Source: a virus
Lineage: Duplodnaviria; Heunggongvirae; Uroviricota; Caudoviricetes
Length of the DNA stretch: 7,054 nucleotides
IMG/VR virus record: IMGVR_UViG_2547132270_000003
Location: 1 to 7,054 of that record
Strand: one strand, 5' to 3'
Shown one piece after another: positions 2,177-7,054 of the stretch. Below the pieces are notes generated by a model, which saw only the letters and a program-made list of their open reading frames with translations, searched no databases and was not told where the DNA came from. A program made the position numbers and the translations under genes. Position 1 is the stretch's first letter. Every line of letters starts with the position of its first letter.

Positions 2177-4453
2177 TTAATGCGCGGCTTCCGGTTTATG
2201 CTTTTGCGCACTCTGGAAGCCGTAGGTCAGCTCATTTTTCTCTTTATCCAGCGCAACAGTCACCTGGCCGCCATCCACCAGCGAGCCAAACAGCAGTTCG
2301 TTGGCGAGCGGTTTTTTCAGGTTATCCTGAATCACACGTGCCATCGGACGCGCTCCCATTGCCCGGTCGTAACCTTTTTCGGCCAGCCAGTTACGAGCTT
2401 CCTGACTCACTTCCAGAGAAACGCCTTTTTGATCCAACTGTACCTGCAACTCGACGATGAATTTATCCACCACCTGATGGATCACATCAGTAGAAAGATG
2501 ATCGAACCAGATAATGTTGTCGAGGCGGTTACGGAACTCCGGCGTAAAGATCTTCTTGATCTCCTCCATCGCATCGGTGCTGTTATCCTGCTGGATAAGG
2601 CCAATCGATTTACGCTCGGTTTCTCGTACCCCAGCGTTGGTGGTCATCACCAATACCACGTTACGGAAGTCTGCTTTGCGTCCGTTGTTATCGGTCAGCG
2701 TACCGTTATCCATCACCTGCAACAGAATGTTGAACACGTCTGGATGCGCTTTCTCGATTTCGTCCAGCAGCAGCACCGCGTGCGGATGCTTAATTACCGC
2801 ATCGGTCAGCAAACCGCCCTGATCAAAACCAACGTATCCCGGAGGCGCGCCAATCAGACGGCTGACAGTGTGACGTTCCATATATTCGGACATATCAAAG
2901 CGTAATAGCTCAATGCCCAGAGCTTTGGAAAGCTGCACTGTAACCTCAGTTTTACCGACCCCGGTTGGACCAGCAAACAGGAACGAACCGACCGGTTTAT
3001 GTTCATGGCCTAAACCCGCACGCGACATCTTGATAGCTTCGGTAAGCGCCTCAATAGCTTTATCCTGACCGAAAACCAGCATTTTCAGACGGTCGCCGAG
3101 GTTTCTTAGCGTATCGCGGTCACTCTGAGAAACACTCTTCTCAGGGATACGCGCGATACGAGCTACCACGGACTCAATATCCGCTACATTGACGGTTTTC
3201 TTACGCTTGCTGATCGGCATCAGTCGCGCACGCGCGCCGGCCTCGTCAATGACATCAATCGCCTTATCCGGCAGATGGCGATCGTTAATGTACTTCACCG
3301 CCAGTTCTACCGCCGCACGCACCGCTTTCGCGGTATAACGCACGTCGTGGTGCGCTTCGTACTTCGGTTTCAGGCCATTGATAATTTGAACGGTTTCTTC
3401 GATCGACGGCTCAGTAATATCGATTTTCTGGAAGCGGCGCGCCAGAGCACGATCTTTCTCGAAAATGTTGCTGAATTCCTGATATGTCGTTGAACCGATA
3501 ACGCGAATTTTACCGCTTGAGAGCAACGGTTTGATCAGGTTAGCCGCATCCACCTGACCGCCAGATGCTGCCCCTGCACCGATGATGGTGTGGATCTCAT
3601 CGATAAAAAGAATGCTGTTGGTATCCTGTTCCAGTTGTTTGAGCAACGCCTTAAAACGTTTTTCAAAGTCACCACGATATTTGGTGCCTGCTAACAAAGA
3701 ACCGATATCCAGAGAGTAAATCGTACAGTCAGCCATCACTTCCGGCACATCGCCCTGGACGATGCGCCAGGCGAGACCTTCCGCAATCGCAGTTTTACCG
3801 ACGCCAGACTCACCAACCAGCAGCGGGTTGTTTTTACGGCGACGGCAAAGAACCTGAATGGCGCGTTCCAGTTCCTTCTCACGACCAATCAGTGGGTCAA
3901 TGCCGCCCACTCGTGCAAGCTGATTCAGGTTAGTCGTGAAATTCTCCATACGCTCCTCCCCACCAGCTTGTTCTTCACTGCCCGGCTGGTTTCCTGGTTC
4001 AGAAGACTGAGATGGCTCGTCTTTACGCGTGCCATGAGAAATAAAGTTCACTACATCAAGGCGGCTGACTTCATGTTTGCGCAACAGATAAGCCGCCTGT
4101 GATTCCTGTTCGCTGAAGATAGCGACCAGAACGTTCGCACCGGTAACCTCATTGCGACCGGAGGACTGAACATGGAATACCGCACGTTGTAGTACACGCT
4201 GAAAACTCAATGTCGGCTGCGTGTCGCGCTCTTCTTCGCTGGCAGGCAGAACGGGCGTGGTTTGTTCAATAAAGGCTTCCAGTTCCTGACGGAGCGCAAC
4301 CAGATCTACGGAACACGCCTCCAGCGCCTCCCGGGCAGATGGGTTACTGAGCAACGCCAGTAACAAGTGCTCGACGGTCATAAACTCATGACGGTGCTCG
4401 CGCGCTCTGGCGAAAGCCATGTTTAAACTGAGTTCCAGTTCTTGATTGAGCAT
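2177..4453 (-). CDS. clpA: ATP-dependent Clp protease ATP-binding subunit ClpA (758 aa)
   Basis: ORF track 2177..4468 (-). The protein is essentially the E. coli ClpA sequence as I recall it ([35 protein letters not shown]..., two AAA+ modules with GESGVGKT and GPTGVGKT Walker A motifs). The true start is the second ATG at 4453 (MLNQ...), preceded by GGAGG; the track's upstream ATG at 4468 lies inside that ribosome-binding site. Confidence 0.97.
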
Positions 4454-4483: not shown

Positions 4484-4804
4484 TCAGGCTTTTTCCAGCG
4501 TACACAGCAATGGATGCTCATTCTCCCTCGCATACTTGTTCACCATCGCTACTTTGGTTTCTGCAACCTCAGCGGTAAAGACGCCGCAAATGGCCTTCCC
4601 CTGGTAGTGAACAGCGAGCATCAATTGCGTTGCACGTTCTACATCATAAGAAAAGAATTTTTGTAACACGTCAATAACAAACTCCATCGGAGTGTAATCA
4701 TCATTGACTAATATCACTTTATACATAGATGGCGGTTTTAGCGCGTCGCGCACTCTTTCTTCCGCCAGTTGCTCAAAGTCCAGCCAGTCGTTCGTTTTAC
4801 CCAT
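4484..4804 (-). CDS. clpS: ClpS, ClpAP adaptor for N-degron substrates (106 aa)
   Basis: ORF track 4484..4804 (-): [51 protein letters not shown]..., which matches E. coli ClpS from memory. It lies 30 nt upstream of clpA, the canonical clpS-clpA arrangement. Confidence 0.95.
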
Positions 4805-4977
4805 TGTCAGTTATCATCTTCGGTTACGGTTATCGGCAGAACGCTCTGCCGCTGACAAGAGCTTATTTGCCTGACCAATCTACTTCACATGATAGATAAC
4901 TATCATTTATATCATTTAGTTAATTAGTCTTTATTTTTCATTATGTTGCAAATAACAAGCCCGTCAAAAACAGTGAT

Positions 4978-5034
4978 ATTAACTACACCATTAACTACAC
5001 CGCTTCACGAACAATATCGAACAACCGCGAACAA
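4978..5034. repeat. Perfect tandem 12-bp repeat (ATTAACTACACC x2) followed by three CGAACAA heptamers at exact 10-bp phasing
   Basis: Read directly: ATTAACTACACC at 4978..4989 and 4990..5001; CGAACAA at 5008..5014, 5018..5024 and 5028..5034. It lies about 175 to 230 bp upstream of the clpS start in an AT-rich region. Confidence 0.5.
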
Positions 5035-5299
5035 AGATCAACACGCTTTAATCATTATCATTTTCCGGCTATCCGTCATGAAGCTGGTGGATGATCTGCG
5101 TGGTGATTTCCACCATTCAGAGCAGGGCGGTCATCATGACCATGCCATAACAAAAACCCCATATTCGTGGTTTTTCTGTGTCGGGGCTATTCTGCTGTTG
5201 CCGTGCTGGTGGATATTCTCCGGTATGCGGCTCCCCATATCGGCATCAGGCCCACCAGCGTGAAGCGTTTTTCATTTTTCGCGGGTATAAAAAATCGAT

Positions 5300-5348
5300 G
5301 GGGCGGGCAGTCCTGAAGAGGTCAGGATACAGAGATTTGACCCGCCCC
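5300..5348 (-). other. GC-rich hairpin (GGGGCGGG ... CCCGCCCC) with an inner TCCTGA/TCAGGA hairpin; terminator-like for leftward transcripts
   Basis: Inverted repeat GGGGCGGG (5300..5307) and CCCGCCCC (5341..5348). On the minus strand a T6 tract follows, but after a 5-nt spacer, so it is not a textbook terminator. A 14-bp perfect palindrome GGCGGAATTCCGCC lies nearby at 5381..5394. Confidence 0.35.
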
Positions 5349-5524
5349 CTCCCTGTGCATGAGCACAATAAGTAACCAAAGGCGGAATTCCGCCCTCGGT
5401 GCTCACATATAAGAAACGATATTTCTTCCACCGATCCCCTGTATTTTGGTATCGCGGGTAAGCCCCAAAATCTGGGTGTTACTCTTACTACCCAAACTAC
5501 GGGTAGTTTCCGTAGTTTCTGGTC

Positions 5525-5544
5525 GAGTTGCAGATCTGCAACTC
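5525..5544. promoter_or_regulatory. 20-bp perfect palindrome GAGTTGCAGATCTGCAACTC (candidate protein-binding site)
   Basis: Read directly; the sequence is its own reverse complement over 20 bp, in a region with no convincing gene. Confidence 0.4.
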
Positions 5545-5800
5545 ACCCACCAGCTAACCCATTTTTGGGCCGTCGGGAATATCAACCAGTTACTGCCAGT
5601 GATCTGGATGTTCTGCAGTCTGGCTGGTGGCTGGACGCTGATTTTTTGCGTACCTGTATCGGTTTCGTATCCGGTGGATGTTCTGCGTACTTTTCAGAGG
5701 CGGATTTCCGCCCACGCCATTCTGGACCAGTTGAAGGGGCCGAATACATCACCGGATTTAGGGGATGTTCCCGGCCTCCTCAATTTGAGGATTGTGGAAG

Positions 5801-5869
5801 AATCAATGGGTTAGTCTTACTGTCCCTCATTTCCTGCATTGCAGGTTTTCGAAATAATCAATGGGTTAG
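5801..5869. repeat. Direct repeats AATCAATGGGTTAG (5801..5814 and 5856..5869), 55 bp apart
   Basis: Read directly. A third, inverted copy of the ATGGGTTAG core (plus-strand CTAACCCAT) lies near 5553..5561. The second direct copy overlaps the TGA (5858..5860) that ends the open frame downstream of the 94-aa ORF. Confidence 0.5.
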
Positions 5870-6031
5870 GCCATCGTGCAATTTTGCACTTTGCCAGCCA
5901 GCGCAATGTTGCGTTATCGGGAATATCAGCACGTTACCGGCTTTCGTCATGTTAAACACTGGCCAGGCATCGCCATTCTTATCAATAAAATCACCAGGCT
6001 CAAAATTGAGCTTTGCTTTAATCTCAGCAAG

Positions 6032-6316
6032 TTACCGCCGTAACCGTTCCGGCTTCTTCCACTGGTAAGTTTTTTTCTCGCTCTCCTGATACATCGCCAC
6101 ACGTCGACGGTATGCCAGCAACTCTAATACCCTGGTTCGTATGTCGCGCATATCCACGCCGTTAAGATCGATACCGTCACAGCGCATCACCTCAGCCACC
6201 ACACGCGCGTAATTTTCAGCGGTGACGGTATCAGGCTGCATGGCCTCCTGTGTGCCAGCCTGCTGGCTGATTCCGGTAACGCGGCGGATTAATCCCAGTA
6301 GTTCGGCTTCTGTCAT
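6032..6316 (-). CDS. Hypothetical small protein (94 aa) immediately downstream of the terS-like gene, possibly a truncated or interrupted gene
   Basis: ORF track 6032..6316 (-), starting at an ATG 11 nt after the terS-like stop with no clear Shine-Dalgarno, so translational coupling is plausible. It ends at TAA 6032..6034, and the same frame stays open for 57 more codons to TGA at 5858..5860. It does not resemble the lambda large terminase gpA N-terminus as I recall it. Confidence 0.5.
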   Translation of the reverse strand: MTEAELLGLIRRVTGISQQAGTQEAMQPDTVTAENYARVVAEVMRCDGIDLNGVDMRDIRTRVLELLAYRRRVAMYQESEKKTYQWKKPERLRR

Positions 6317-6327
6317 AGTGCGCTACG

Positions 6328-6870
6328 TTACTTGTCTTTATCCGGCTGAAACTTATCAGGCACATTTCCGGTAGTTTCCATCAGATAATCGGACAGTATT
6401 CGCGGGATGTTTTCATCAAGTTTTGTGCATGCGTTACAGGCTCTGACAACTTCCTTTTTAAGTCCATCCAGCATAGCGGGGGTAATCTGTGGGAAGCGCC
6501 TTTGCATGGTAAGCGGCAAACTGTCCATGATTGAAGAAATCTGACTCGCCAGTTTTGAAAGCACATATATACAAAATTCCGTACTAATAACGTCGCCGCG
6601 TTCGCGCTCGTTTTTAAGCTCCTGCGCCTCCGCCTGCGCTGTCAGCAATCTGATCCTGACTCGCAAAAGTTCATCATTATCAATCTCGCCTTTGTCGTCT
6701 GTAATCTGGTTAATTGCATTGCTAACCCGATTGTCTATTACGCTGGCAACATCATAAAACGCCTCGCGGCCTTTACGTTCAACGGGAGTCACTCCCCACT
6801 TGTCGAACGCTGTCGCACTTACACGGCAGCTTTGCGCCATGTTTTTTTTGTTCATCAGGTACGATTTCAT
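6328..6870 (-). CDS. terS: Phage lambda Nu1-like terminase small subunit (TerS)
   Basis: ORF track 6328..6882 (-). The C-terminal two thirds (LLTAQAEAQELKNERERGDVISTEFCIYVLSKLASQISSIMDSLPLTMQRRFP...LDENIPRILSDYLME) aligns with lambda Nu1 as I recall it (RLTRAQADAQELKNARDSAEVVETAFCTFVLSRIAGEIASILDGLPLSVQRRFP...LDELIPGLLSEYIE). The N-terminal region is divergent. The track start at 6882 is a GTG; I prefer ATG at 6870, which has GGGGA 5 nt upstream, and ATG at 6855 is an alternative. Confidence 0.85.
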   Translation of the reverse strand: MKSYLMNKKNMAQSCRVSATAFDKWGVTPVERKGREAFYDVASVIDNRVSNAINQITDDKGEIDNDELLRVRIRLLTAQAEAQELKNERERGDVISTEFCIYVLSKLASQISSIMDSLPLTMQRRFPQITPAMLDGLKKEVVRACNACTKLDENIPRILSDYLMETTGNVPDKFQPDKDK

Positions 6871-7054
6871 CAATATCCCCACTTAAGTAATGTTTCAGGT
6901 TGGTGTATTGGTTTTATCTTTCCCTTTTTATTCATAGAGATAGAGCGAACAACAAAACCACCACCAATCCCCTAAAAATACTCATAAATAGCGAAAACCC
7001 GCAAGGTCGCCGCCCCGTAGCCTACCGGATCGCCGGAAAGGACCCGCCAGCCAG
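6871..7054 (-). other. Lambda-type cos site: cosN cohesive-end sequence at 7004..7015 with a divergent cosB between cosN and terS
   Basis: Minus strand reads CTACG GGGCGGCGACCT TGCGGGTTTTCGCTATTTATGAGTATTTTTAGGGG. From memory the lambda left end is GGGCGGCGACCTCGCGGGTTTTCGCTATTTATGAAAATTTTCCGG, so the 12-nt cohesive end and the adjoining ~22 nt are nearly identical. Similarity is lost after about 35 nt, through the ~135 bp up to the terS start. Confidence 0.75.

Follow-up and report, generated by a model that had tools for sequence, protein, structure and literature searches.

The window analysed here is a whole contig of 7,054 bp, and its positions 4907-7054 are very probably the right-hand ~2.1 kb of a phage-inducible chromosomal island (PICI) of ~10.9 kb, which sits between clpS and cspD. 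The cspD gene is missing upstream of clpS because of this insertion, not through gene loss or an assembly error; it is probably displaced by ~11 kb by the island and not lost. This kind of element and its cspD-clpS attachment site are already in the literature, and the insertion itself is ordinary. The window's share of the island comprises an att arm, ~1.1 kb of structured and mosaic non-coding DNA, a 94-aa gene, a Nu1-like terS and a lambda-type cos, arranged with the chromosomal flank as follows.

4484-4804, minus: clpS, chromosomal flank (106-aa ORF; Pfam ClpS in identical loci)
4805-4889, no strand: native clpS upstream sequence, chromosome side, collinear with K-12 and same-lineage empty sites up to the core
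4890-4910, no strand: att core on the clpS side (attR if int is drawn left), TGATAGATAACTATCATTTAT, a 21-bp direct repeat
4911-5090, no strand: element-side att arm, AT-rich (GC 0.33 to 5060), with repeats; it travels with the integrase type
4940-4967, minus: outward sigma-70-like site towards clpS, TTGACG-16-CATAAT (consensus scan, 10/12 matches)
5270-5354, minus: 85-bp block resembling the cos region of SfV/SfI/SfII/ST64B-type (HNH-dependent) phages (88-92% identity, E down to 8e-25)
5355-5597, minus: conserved, strongly structured non-coding block, which in minimal relatives follows the 94-aa gene without a gap (fold z = -4.27)
5598-6019, no strand: mosaic filler, missing from TUM18780 in an alignment with GB089 and TUM18780
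6032-6316, minus: 94-aa conserved satellite gene (phrog_1561, PHROG 1.8e-49)
6328-6870, minus: small terminase of the Nu1 family, 180 aa (ATG at 6870, GGGGA ribosome-binding site)
6871-7054, minus: lambda-type cos, with cosN GGGCGGCGACCT, a cosQ-like sequence and, as far as the start of terS, a spacer on the cosB side that is not lambda-like

Five lines of evidence agree on the junction, namely the comparison with K-12, the empty sites, the direct repeat, the drop in divergence and a circular sibling with attP, and the att core and crossover interval are resolved to single bases by comparing empty, occupied and circular forms that occur naturally. The 11-bp overlap ATAACTATCAT lies at 4896-4906 and the crossover falls inside it; the first element-specific base is 4907, the junction is 4906/4907, and all homology is gone past 4910. 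Fillol-Salom et al. (2018; PMC6092414 Table S1) placed EcCIIHE3034 and EcCI18098 at cspD-clpS with the core ATGATAGTTAT, which is the reverse complement of the window's sequence at 4896-4906. The attB, into which the island integrated by site-specific recombination, lies 85-106 bp upstream of clpS and includes part of the 3' end of yljB; the two core copies are reciprocally mismatched to this attB at core positions 6 and 18. Five same-lineage genomes have an empty cspD-yljB-clpS site reading ...ATAACTATCATCTATCGTTGG; they encode an identical ClpS, are 99.5-99.9% identical over clpA-clpS-4910, and their match ends at 4910. The same junction is present in 361 of 5426 complete E. coli genomes, and the other matching genomes among those sampled align only as far as 4910. 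As compared to eight E. coli copies, the window has 0-2 mismatches over 4911-7054 (2144 bp), against 2/106 in the upstream segment, 8/321 in clpS and ~205/2292 in clpA, i.e., 2-9% divergence in the flank. The second core, next to yljB-cspD, is predicted to be TGATAAATAACTATCATCTAT, and attP is predicted to read ...CGAACAC..TGATAAATAACTATCATTTATATCATTTAG....

The original prediction, made from the window's letters, had noted that cspD, which it placed ~320 bp from clpS in K-12, does not occur within 2.25 kb here. Both statements were borne out: tblastn of K-12 CspD and YljB on the window gave a best E of 0.53, and in K-12 an interval of 322 bp, containing the small gene yljB, separates clpS from the end of cspD upstream of it, an arrangement and distance also found in the same-lineage genomes. 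Two of the checks it proposed were likewise positive: synteny with K-12 breaks off at 4910 and the 21-bp repeat flanks the element in the occupied genomes GB089, TUM18780 and L010. Its junction, put at 5050-5100, was ~150-190 bp too far from clpS: chromosomal homology stops at 4910, and element bases start at 4907. The misplacement arose because the AT-rich stretch from 4911 to ~5060, with its phased repeats, belongs to the element as its att arm. The described passage from AT-rich to GC-richer sequence is itself real (GC 0.415 at 4805-4910, 0.327 at 4911-5060 and 0.53 at 5061-5269), and at ~5050-5100, where the composition shifts, this arm has its inner end; the mosaic of related islands has a boundary there too, at 5082 and 5096 in relatives. 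The arm contains ATTAACTACACC twice (4978-5001) and CGAACAA three times with 10-bp phasing (5008, 5018 and 5028), and CGAACAC repeats adjoin the core at the integrase side too; the repeats within the arm are probably arm-type integrase binding sites. The arm is common to EcCIIHE3034, the pZ1323 circle and RM12581, up to 5082-5259, and a phage search found no match to 4911-5275. The sigma-70-like site within it is a lead only, as such sites are no more frequent in the region than expected from shuffled sequence.

The exact ClpA protein of the window is named Escherichia albertii at NCBI, and the other island copies have E. coli-type flanks. The clpS gene, with 8/321 mismatches to the E. coli copies, is together with clpA 99.5-99.9% identical to same-lineage genomes. 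The 2.1-kb right end of the island is near-identical in hosts with 9% clpA divergence, which illustrates recent cross-species spread of a satellite. The lower divergence of clpS (2%) than of clpA (9%) led us to consider that homologous recombination had brought in the island along with flanking DNA from E. coli, and this was rejected because the same-lineage genomes with an empty site have the same clpS sequence. The window's copy may excise and circularise at att, as a sibling appears to do: NZ_CP148328.1, a circular record of 10,790 bp, is an island of the same integrase type whose ends are joined exactly at the predicted attP.

The contig ends within the island, 39 bp past cosN, so the int, regulatory and replication genes are known only from copies in other genomes. 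The full gene content was taken from L008-L015, GB089 and TUM18780, and L008-L015 differ from the window by 0-2 bases over the shared 4911-7054. In copies this close to the window the order is int, alpA, (Ash/Icd-like), DUF4222, P4-type primase and SSB, followed by genes for a lambda gpE-like capsid protein, a gpD-like decoration protein and an AlpA-like HTH protein, then cos, the Nu1-like terS, the 94-aa gene, ~1.1 kb of non-coding DNA and att. The integrase of these relatives is a P4-type tyrosine integrase with a Pfam Arm-DNA-bind_3 domain, and the integrase, AlpA-type regulator and primase module in a conserved unidirectional order, seen in these copies outside the window, is that of a PICI. 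The L010 copy measures 10,900 bp from core to core, within the ~10-15 kb without tail or lysis genes typical of PICIs, and genes for portal, tail, lysis and TerL are all absent from it; its morphogenesis and packaging region has only Phage_cap_E, HDPD and Phage_Nu1 by Pfam.

The original prediction had invoked a lambdoid-derived insertion, or a replacement of the cspD side. A mobile element is indeed inserted between clpS and cspD, and lambda-type cosN, a cosQ-like sequence, a Nu1-family terS and, further in, gpE/gpD-like capsid genes would suit a lambdoid prophage or its decayed remnant. This identity is nevertheless very improbable: the lambda-like part of the island is limited to packaging and capsid genes (terS, cos and the gpE/gpD homologues), and the complete copies, of 10.9 kb, encode the P4-type integrase, AlpA and primase of a satellite and no portal, tail, lysis or large terminase genes. 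A lambdoid prophage or remnant also fits poorly with a right end (4911-7054) that shows 0-2 base differences among hosts 9% apart in clpA, and with a sibling known as a closed circle. No evidence favours the replacement: yljB and cspD are intact at the integrase side in all complete relatives. The cspD-clpS site, moreover, is catalogued as PICI-specific (PMC6092414), and all of its occupants examined were satellites. The P4-family integrase and primase domains, AlpA and the Icd-like gene of relatives would instead recall a P4-like satellite dependent on a P2-type helper, an even more remote prospect given a lambda-type cos, a Nu1-like TerS, and capsid homologues in place of sid/delta/psu-type genes, none of which appeared among the Pfam-annotated products. 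The 19-nt P2-type cos, GGCGAGGCGGGGAAAGCAC, had no match within 3 mismatches in the full L010 copy. The islands described in PMC6092414 are set explicitly apart from P4 in that study.

The terS and cos that had originally been described were found in the window, with terS (6328-6870) and cosN (7004-7015) on the minus strand, as is the 94-aa ORF (6032-6316). TerS matched Pfam Phage_Nu1 (9.6e-24) and phrog_57 (1.3e-50), shows full-length identities of 47% to N15 gp1 and 37% to lambda Nu1, and its exact protein carries the database name 'MULTISPECIES: terminase small subunit [Escherichia]'. Against PDB chains, RppC included, no match was obtained at E <= 0.01, so TerS was not tied to an Rpp or Nu1 N-terminal domain structure. 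The exact 12-nt lambda cosN lies at 7004-7015, minus, and the cosQ-like GGGTCCTTTCCGG, read directly from the sequence, at about 7033-7045. The region is 84-92% identical to lambdoid phage cos regions, and its layout is the same as in the cos of phi80, phage 4 and EcCICFT073 printed in the supplement of PMC6092414. A cosN that follows a cosQ-like sequence just upstream of a Nu1-family terS points to a lambda-type cos.

The block at 5270-5354 may be a second, unrelated packaging site, for an HNH-dependent helper terminase. Its minus strand at 5300-5309 reads TGCCCGCCCC, the exact 10-nt cohesive end 5'-TGCCCGCCCC-3' that was determined experimentally for SfI and is common to SfII, SfIV and SfV (PMC3636060, PMC3851460). 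The phage matches to the block fall at the ends of phage records, and in phages 720R4 and SKA5 the interval between the HNH gene and terS is taken up by it; an exact 10-mer inside this conserved intergenic segment suggests a cos sequence of the SfV/SfI/ST64B type. We found no mention of such a block in islands in the searchable PICI literature. The relatives carry lambda and lambda, lambda and SfV-type, or only an SfV-type variant cos.

Whether the block acts in packaging can be weighed from its surroundings. We lean slightly towards a recombination scar from such a phage or a capsid-forming PICI (cf-PICI) ancestor, with no packaging role, as the surrounding 1.1 kb is a patchwork with roi gene ends and duplicated gene 3' ends, the block is absent in EcCIIHE3034 and degenerate in the D8 cf-PICI, and some islands have a one-base variant of the 10-mer. 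A scar accounts less readily for homology limits that are sharp and lie within the phage HNH-terS intergenic segment, for an exact copy of the experimentally defined 10-nt end oriented relative to gene direction as in phages, and for a block that, with island-specific flanks, is kept at 91-98% identity in 293 of 5426 E. coli genomes. The block is also intact in the islands without their own HNH and TerL, and decayed in the one having them. Two functional and unrelated packaging sites, a lambda-type cos served by the island's own TerS with a helper gpA-type large terminase and a borrowed SfV/SfI/ST64B-type cos served by an HNH-dependent terminase, are a tentative proposal that we hold to be possible. 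If the proposal is true, two unrelated classes of helper could mobilise the 10.9-kb satellite, or the packaging machinery of a cf-PICI in the same host could do so, and cos sites would be exchangeable cassettes at the right end of the island. A working second cos would also mean that swappable cis sites, and not TerS/Rpp-type proteins alone, determine the helper range.

The closest known systems are EcCIIHE3034 and EcCI18098, which have the same attachment site, 11-bp core and gene order, a similar size (10.5-10.8 kb), and both a Nu1-like TerS and a 93/94-aa terminal gene. The int and both att arms of EcCIIHE3034 are 96-97% identical to the window-type island, but its interior is mosaic, with 85% identity in terS, 80% in the 94-aa gene and ~65% in the capsid gene. 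It has two inverted lambda-type cosN and no SfV-type block, whereas the window's island has one of each, together with ~535 bp more non-coding DNA before clpS. EcCICFT073, the prototype Gram-negative PICI (Fillol-Salom 2018, 2019), likewise has capsid and head-decoration homologues, AlpA-controlled induction, lambda-like cosQ/cosN with a non-lambda cosB, and two cos sites per island, the second of which is in the window's island a cos-like one. EcCICFT073 lacks TerS and redirects the helper TerS with RppA (144 aa), whereas the window's island has a full-length Nu1 homologue; both its cos are lambda-type, whereas the second cos-like site here is of the unrelated HNH-dependent type. The cos-type SaPIs such as SaPIbov5 are satellites with a copy of the cos of an HNH-dependent helper phage and can therefore use the helper's whole terminase (cf-PICI preprint). 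SaPIbov5 differs in its Gram-positive host and unrelated sequences, and in the window the putatively borrowed cos accompanies a second, self-specified packaging system of the lambda type. With the cf-PICIs of the EcCIEDL933 type the island shares its int/alpA/primase backbone, as well as the 93-aa gene at the end and the non-coding block that follows this gene (L024), and one of these cf-PICIs (L028) sits at the same cspD-clpS site in a same-lineage genome. Assignment of the window's island to that class was rejected on the L010 gene list: cf-PICIs encode portal, protease, connectors, HNH, TerS and TerL, but the window's type has only a capsid protein and TerS of the morphogenesis and packaging set.

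By analogy with EcCICFT073 and EcCIIHE3034, a helper phage would induce the island through AlpA, Int would excise it at the 21-bp core, and the primase would replicate the excised form. The island TerS would then recognise the lambda-type cos and recruit the gpA-type large terminase of the helper, by which the island is proposed to be packaged into helper virions; the SfV-type cos copy may admit helper terminases of another, unrelated class. In IHE3034 and 18098, resident prophages did not transfer the TerS-encoding islands after mitomycin C (PMC6092414), which leaves the TerS-encoding subtype without a known helper.

The rest of the non-coding end includes strongly structured sequence, as had been predicted: the fold z of -4.27 at 5355-5600 was reached by 0/200 shuffles. 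The 5355-5597 block is 87-96% identical in islands at other sites, and a terminator scan placed a terminator-like hairpin at 5375-5400. No conserved ORF occurs in the block, where indels break the frames in GB089, and in 4805-7054 no Rfam family was found at permissive thresholds, the sole match being a chance snoRNA (E = 0.94); no tRNA or tmRNA was found. Diverged repeats of the 3' end of the 94-aa gene bound the filler (5550-5597, 5894-5939 and about 5992-6037), and tblastn detected no decayed copy of this gene in the non-coding region. Within the filler, a fragment from the 3' end of a phage roi/antirepressor gene occurs twice (5777-5814 and 5832-5869; roi/KilAC matches), and the phage matches to 5560-6035 are only such 49-bp roi fragments. 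A 112-aa ORF from the gene caller (5476-5814, plus) and a 61-aa membrane-like ORF (5078-5263) were treated as non-coding, because indels break both in GB089 and PGAP calls no CDS across the GB089 non-coding end; no ORF in 4911-6031 matched Pfam, PHROGs or PADLOC. The 94-aa protein has 955 homologue clusters, all unnamed. Its AlphaFold2 model is helical and mediocre (pLDDT 68.8), and Foldseek of this model against PDB gave nothing below E = 0.88. The gene is the last one of PICIs and cf-PICIs at several sites.

The window is one complete contig, AEJY01000220.1 (assembly GCA_000208505.2), of 7054 bp. The window takes in both the att site and the CRISPR-Cas locus, and 29 complete E. coli genomes match at least 80% of it. 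The features identified are as follows.

597-1840, type I-F cas1 and CRISPR repeats (Rfam CRISPR-DR4), directly beyond clpA
2177-4453, minus strand, clpA
4484-4804, minus strand, clpS
4911-6031, about 1.1 kb without a credible gene
6032-6316, minus strand, gene for a 94-aa protein
6328-6870, minus strand, small terminase gene (180 aa)
7004-7015, minus strand, cosN of a lambda-type cos

The absence of cspD near clpS, on which the original prediction was built, was confirmed, as tblastn with CspD and YljB gave no match in the window. The K-12 gene order given there was also right: cspD lies upstream of clpS, with 322 bp from the cspD end to clpS and the 24-codon yljB in the gap. The junction position is agreed by five independent lines. 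The alignment with K-12 revealed the synteny break, ending at 4910, and the match to five same-lineage genomes with empty sites ends at 4910 as well. Those five genomes have cspD-yljB-clpS laid out as in K-12, a ClpS protein identical to that of the window and 99.5-99.9% identity in clpA-clpS; at the break the window has ...TGATAGATAACTATCATTTATATCATT... in place of their ...TGATAGATAACTATCATCTATCGTTGG... The direct repeats expected of an att core were found in E. coli genomes carrying the same insertion, in which the K-12 intergenic sequence is interrupted and both of its broken ends carry a copy of a 21-bp segment (TGATAGATAACTATCATTTAT on the clpS side and TGATAAATAACTATCATCTAT on the cspD side). 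Each copy differs from the empty chromosomal site attB at one of two positions, reciprocally, and therefore strand exchange took place within the common ATAACTATCAT, window 4896-4906. The core ATGATAGTTAT, given for the published islands EcCIIHE3034 and EcCI18098 in Table S1 of PMC6092414, is the reverse complement of exactly this segment. Eight E. coli loci with the same 94-aa protein differ from the window by 0-2 mismatches in 4911-7054, versus 2 in 4805-4910, 8 in clpS and about 205 (9%) in clpA outside the island. A sibling element, NZ_CP148328.1, is a 10,790-bp circular record closed exactly at the predicted attP, with both att arms joined across the core. The clpS-side junction is common to 361 of 5426 complete E. 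coli genomes. NZ_CP148328.1 was deposited as an E. coli plasmid and is really a circularised sibling of the phage-inducible chromosomal island (PICI), encoding an integrase, a primase, a protease-capsid fusion and a DUF1441 protein.

The junction had been predicted at 5050-5100, about 150-190 bp too deep into the element. The described change from AT-rich to GC-richer sequence is real (GC 0.33 in 4911-5060 and 0.53 in 5061-5269), and the composition shift at 5050-5100 marks where the AT-rich att arm, which belongs to the element itself, ends on its inner side. Two copies of ATTAACTACACC and three of CGAACAA, the latter spaced 10 bp apart, lie in this arm. Next to the core, the integrase side has similar repeats, CGAACAC, and in complete copies the integrase itself has an arm-binding domain (Pfam Arm-DNA-bind_3). 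The repeats are probably arm-type integrase sites. Recombination between related islands occurs near 5050-5100 as well, their homology breaking at 5082, 5096 and 5259.

Complete copies of the element measure 10,900 bp from core to core and encode, from the cspD side, a tyrosine integrase, AlpA, an Ash or Icd-like region, a DUF4222 protein, a P4-family primase, SSB, a lambda gpE-like capsid protein, a gpD-like decoration protein and a second AlpA-like HTH protein, followed by cos, a Nu1-like TerS and the 94-aa protein. Portal, tail, lysis and large-terminase genes are absent from these copies. This architecture is that of a Gram-negative PICI as described by Fillol-Salom et al. 2018 (PMC6092414). 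Of the proposed lambdoid-derived insertion, the insertion with att duplication thus stands, but the element is a satellite and not a lambdoid prophage remnant. There is no evidence for the replacement proposed on the cspD side; the contig stops inside the island.

EcCIIHE3034 and EcCI18098 were already catalogued at 'cspD-clpS' (Table S1, PMC6092414), and the element is a new, mosaic member of this known family, at a site already published. EcCIIHE3034 is 96-97% identical to the island in the integrase and in the two att arms, but its interior is mosaic, with identities of 85% for terS, 80% for the 94-aa gene and about 65% for the capsid gene. In the window's lineage the same site holds other satellites, one with a Terminase_4-family small terminase and TerL and further ones with a protease-capsid fusion and a DUF1441 protein, and the cspD-clpS site is a satellite hot spot. 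The 2.1 kb of island in the window is nearly identical to the E. coli copies while the flanking clpA is 9% apart, and NCBI names the exact ClpA protein Escherichia albertii; we therefore conclude that the satellite spread very recently across the species boundary. In E. coli 2014C-3599 (L021 1253-3020), a related satellite end with a 93-aa gene and a protease-capsid fusion lies directly against a prophage terminase gene, a truncated gpA, and this satellite looks like a helper-embedded PICI.

The cosN matches lambda exactly, with cosQ-like sequence before it and a non-lambda spacer behind it. TerS is a full-length member of the Nu1 family (47% identity to N15 gp1 and 37% to lambda Nu1), and only 11 bp separate terS from the 94-aa gene. 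The att core duplication, the sibling circle, cosN and TerS were seen directly; by analogy with characterised relatives (PMC6092414, PMC6739421), a helper phage would induce the island through AlpA, Int would excise it, the primase would replicate it and it would be packaged into helper virions. The island's own TerS presumably recognises the cosB side, which is specific to the island, and brings in a gpA-type large terminase of the helper. In the prototype EcCICFT073 the Rpp protein re-targets the helper TerS, whereas the subtype in the window encodes its own TerS instead. TerS-encoding islands were noted in the 2018 study, and the two assayed were not mobilised by resident prophages (PMC6092414), which leaves this subtype with no known helper. 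The contig ends at 7054, 39 bp beyond cosN; in identical copies the upstream AlpA-like gene has its stop codon 17 bp before this point. The assembly may have collapsed there on cos or packaging sequences that are repeated at other places in the genome.

Far from the lambda-type cos, within the non-coding end of the island, the block 5270-5354 has 88-92% identity to a segment of phages ST64B, SfII, 118970_sal3, vB_EcoM-720R4 and SKA5. In annotated phages the space from the HNH endonuclease gene to the small terminase gene is taken up by this segment, and HNH-dependent cos phages keep the cos site in that space. Experiments on SfI gave 5'-TGCCCGCCCC-3' as its cohesive end, and SfII, SfIV and SfV were reported to have the same end (PMC3636060, PMC3851460). 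The minus strand at 5300-5309 is exactly TGCCCGCCCC, and its orientation with respect to gene direction agrees with that in the phages. The block could, though this is somewhat doubtful, be a second cos site, unrelated in type to the first; the alternative is a recombination scar. With its flanks, which are island-specific, the block was found in 293 of the 5426 E. coli genomes. Islands that have no HNH and TerL of their own carry it intact, and a degenerate version is present in a capsid-forming PICI, in which the island's own gap between HNH and terS has a different cos-like sequence. The circular sibling has the SfV-type 10-mer as a one-base variant only, and EcCIIHE3034 has, instead of the SfV-type block, two inverted lambda-type cosN copies flanking terS (L016 10000 and 10867), whereas the window's island has just one cosN. 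A second cos site, if it works, would open a wider range of helpers. No paper tying SfV- or ST64B-type cos sites to PICIs was found in the searchable literature.

The region 4911-6031 had no match in Pfam, PHROG, PADLOC or Rfam, and the ORFs that gene callers sometimes place there were rejected, being disrupted by indels in a relative. Pieces of this region were found in 951 of the 5426 E. coli genomes, located at the ends of islands that occupy several different sites. The structure-rich sequence of the original prediction was borne out at 5355-5600, which is far more stably folded than shuffled sequence (z = -4.27). The 3' end of the 94-aa gene is present in three diverged copies (5550-5597, 5894-5939 and the true end at about 5992-6037), which with a downstream palindrome bracket extra segments that are missing from the related copy in TUM18780. 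A 3'-end fragment of a phage roi/antirepressor gene is also found twice (5777-5814 and 5832-5869). Outside the cos-like block, the region is a patchwork, and the three copies suggest repeated recombination at a hot spot at the end of the 94-aa gene.

The island parts clpS from yljB, and of the native sequence upstream of clpS 85-106 bp remain. Its genes are transcribed toward clpS, and two elements lie in between, neither of them above chance expectation.

4940-4967, outward promoter-like site TTGACG-16-CATAAT
5375-5400, terminator-like hairpin

Divergence from E. coli falls from about 9.5% to about 2% at 4355-4420, in the 5' end of clpA, and stays low through clpS. This fall is older than the island because same-lineage genomes show the same pattern, and it could reflect an old recombination tract or stronger constraint. 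The satellite att site lies only about 3 kb from the CRISPR-Cas locus. Just 3' of clpA and adjoining the CRISPR array, 2094-2136 on the plus strand matches the ES036 (CssrF) sRNA family of Rfam (42.7 bits against a gathering score of 37.6, E = 3e-6).
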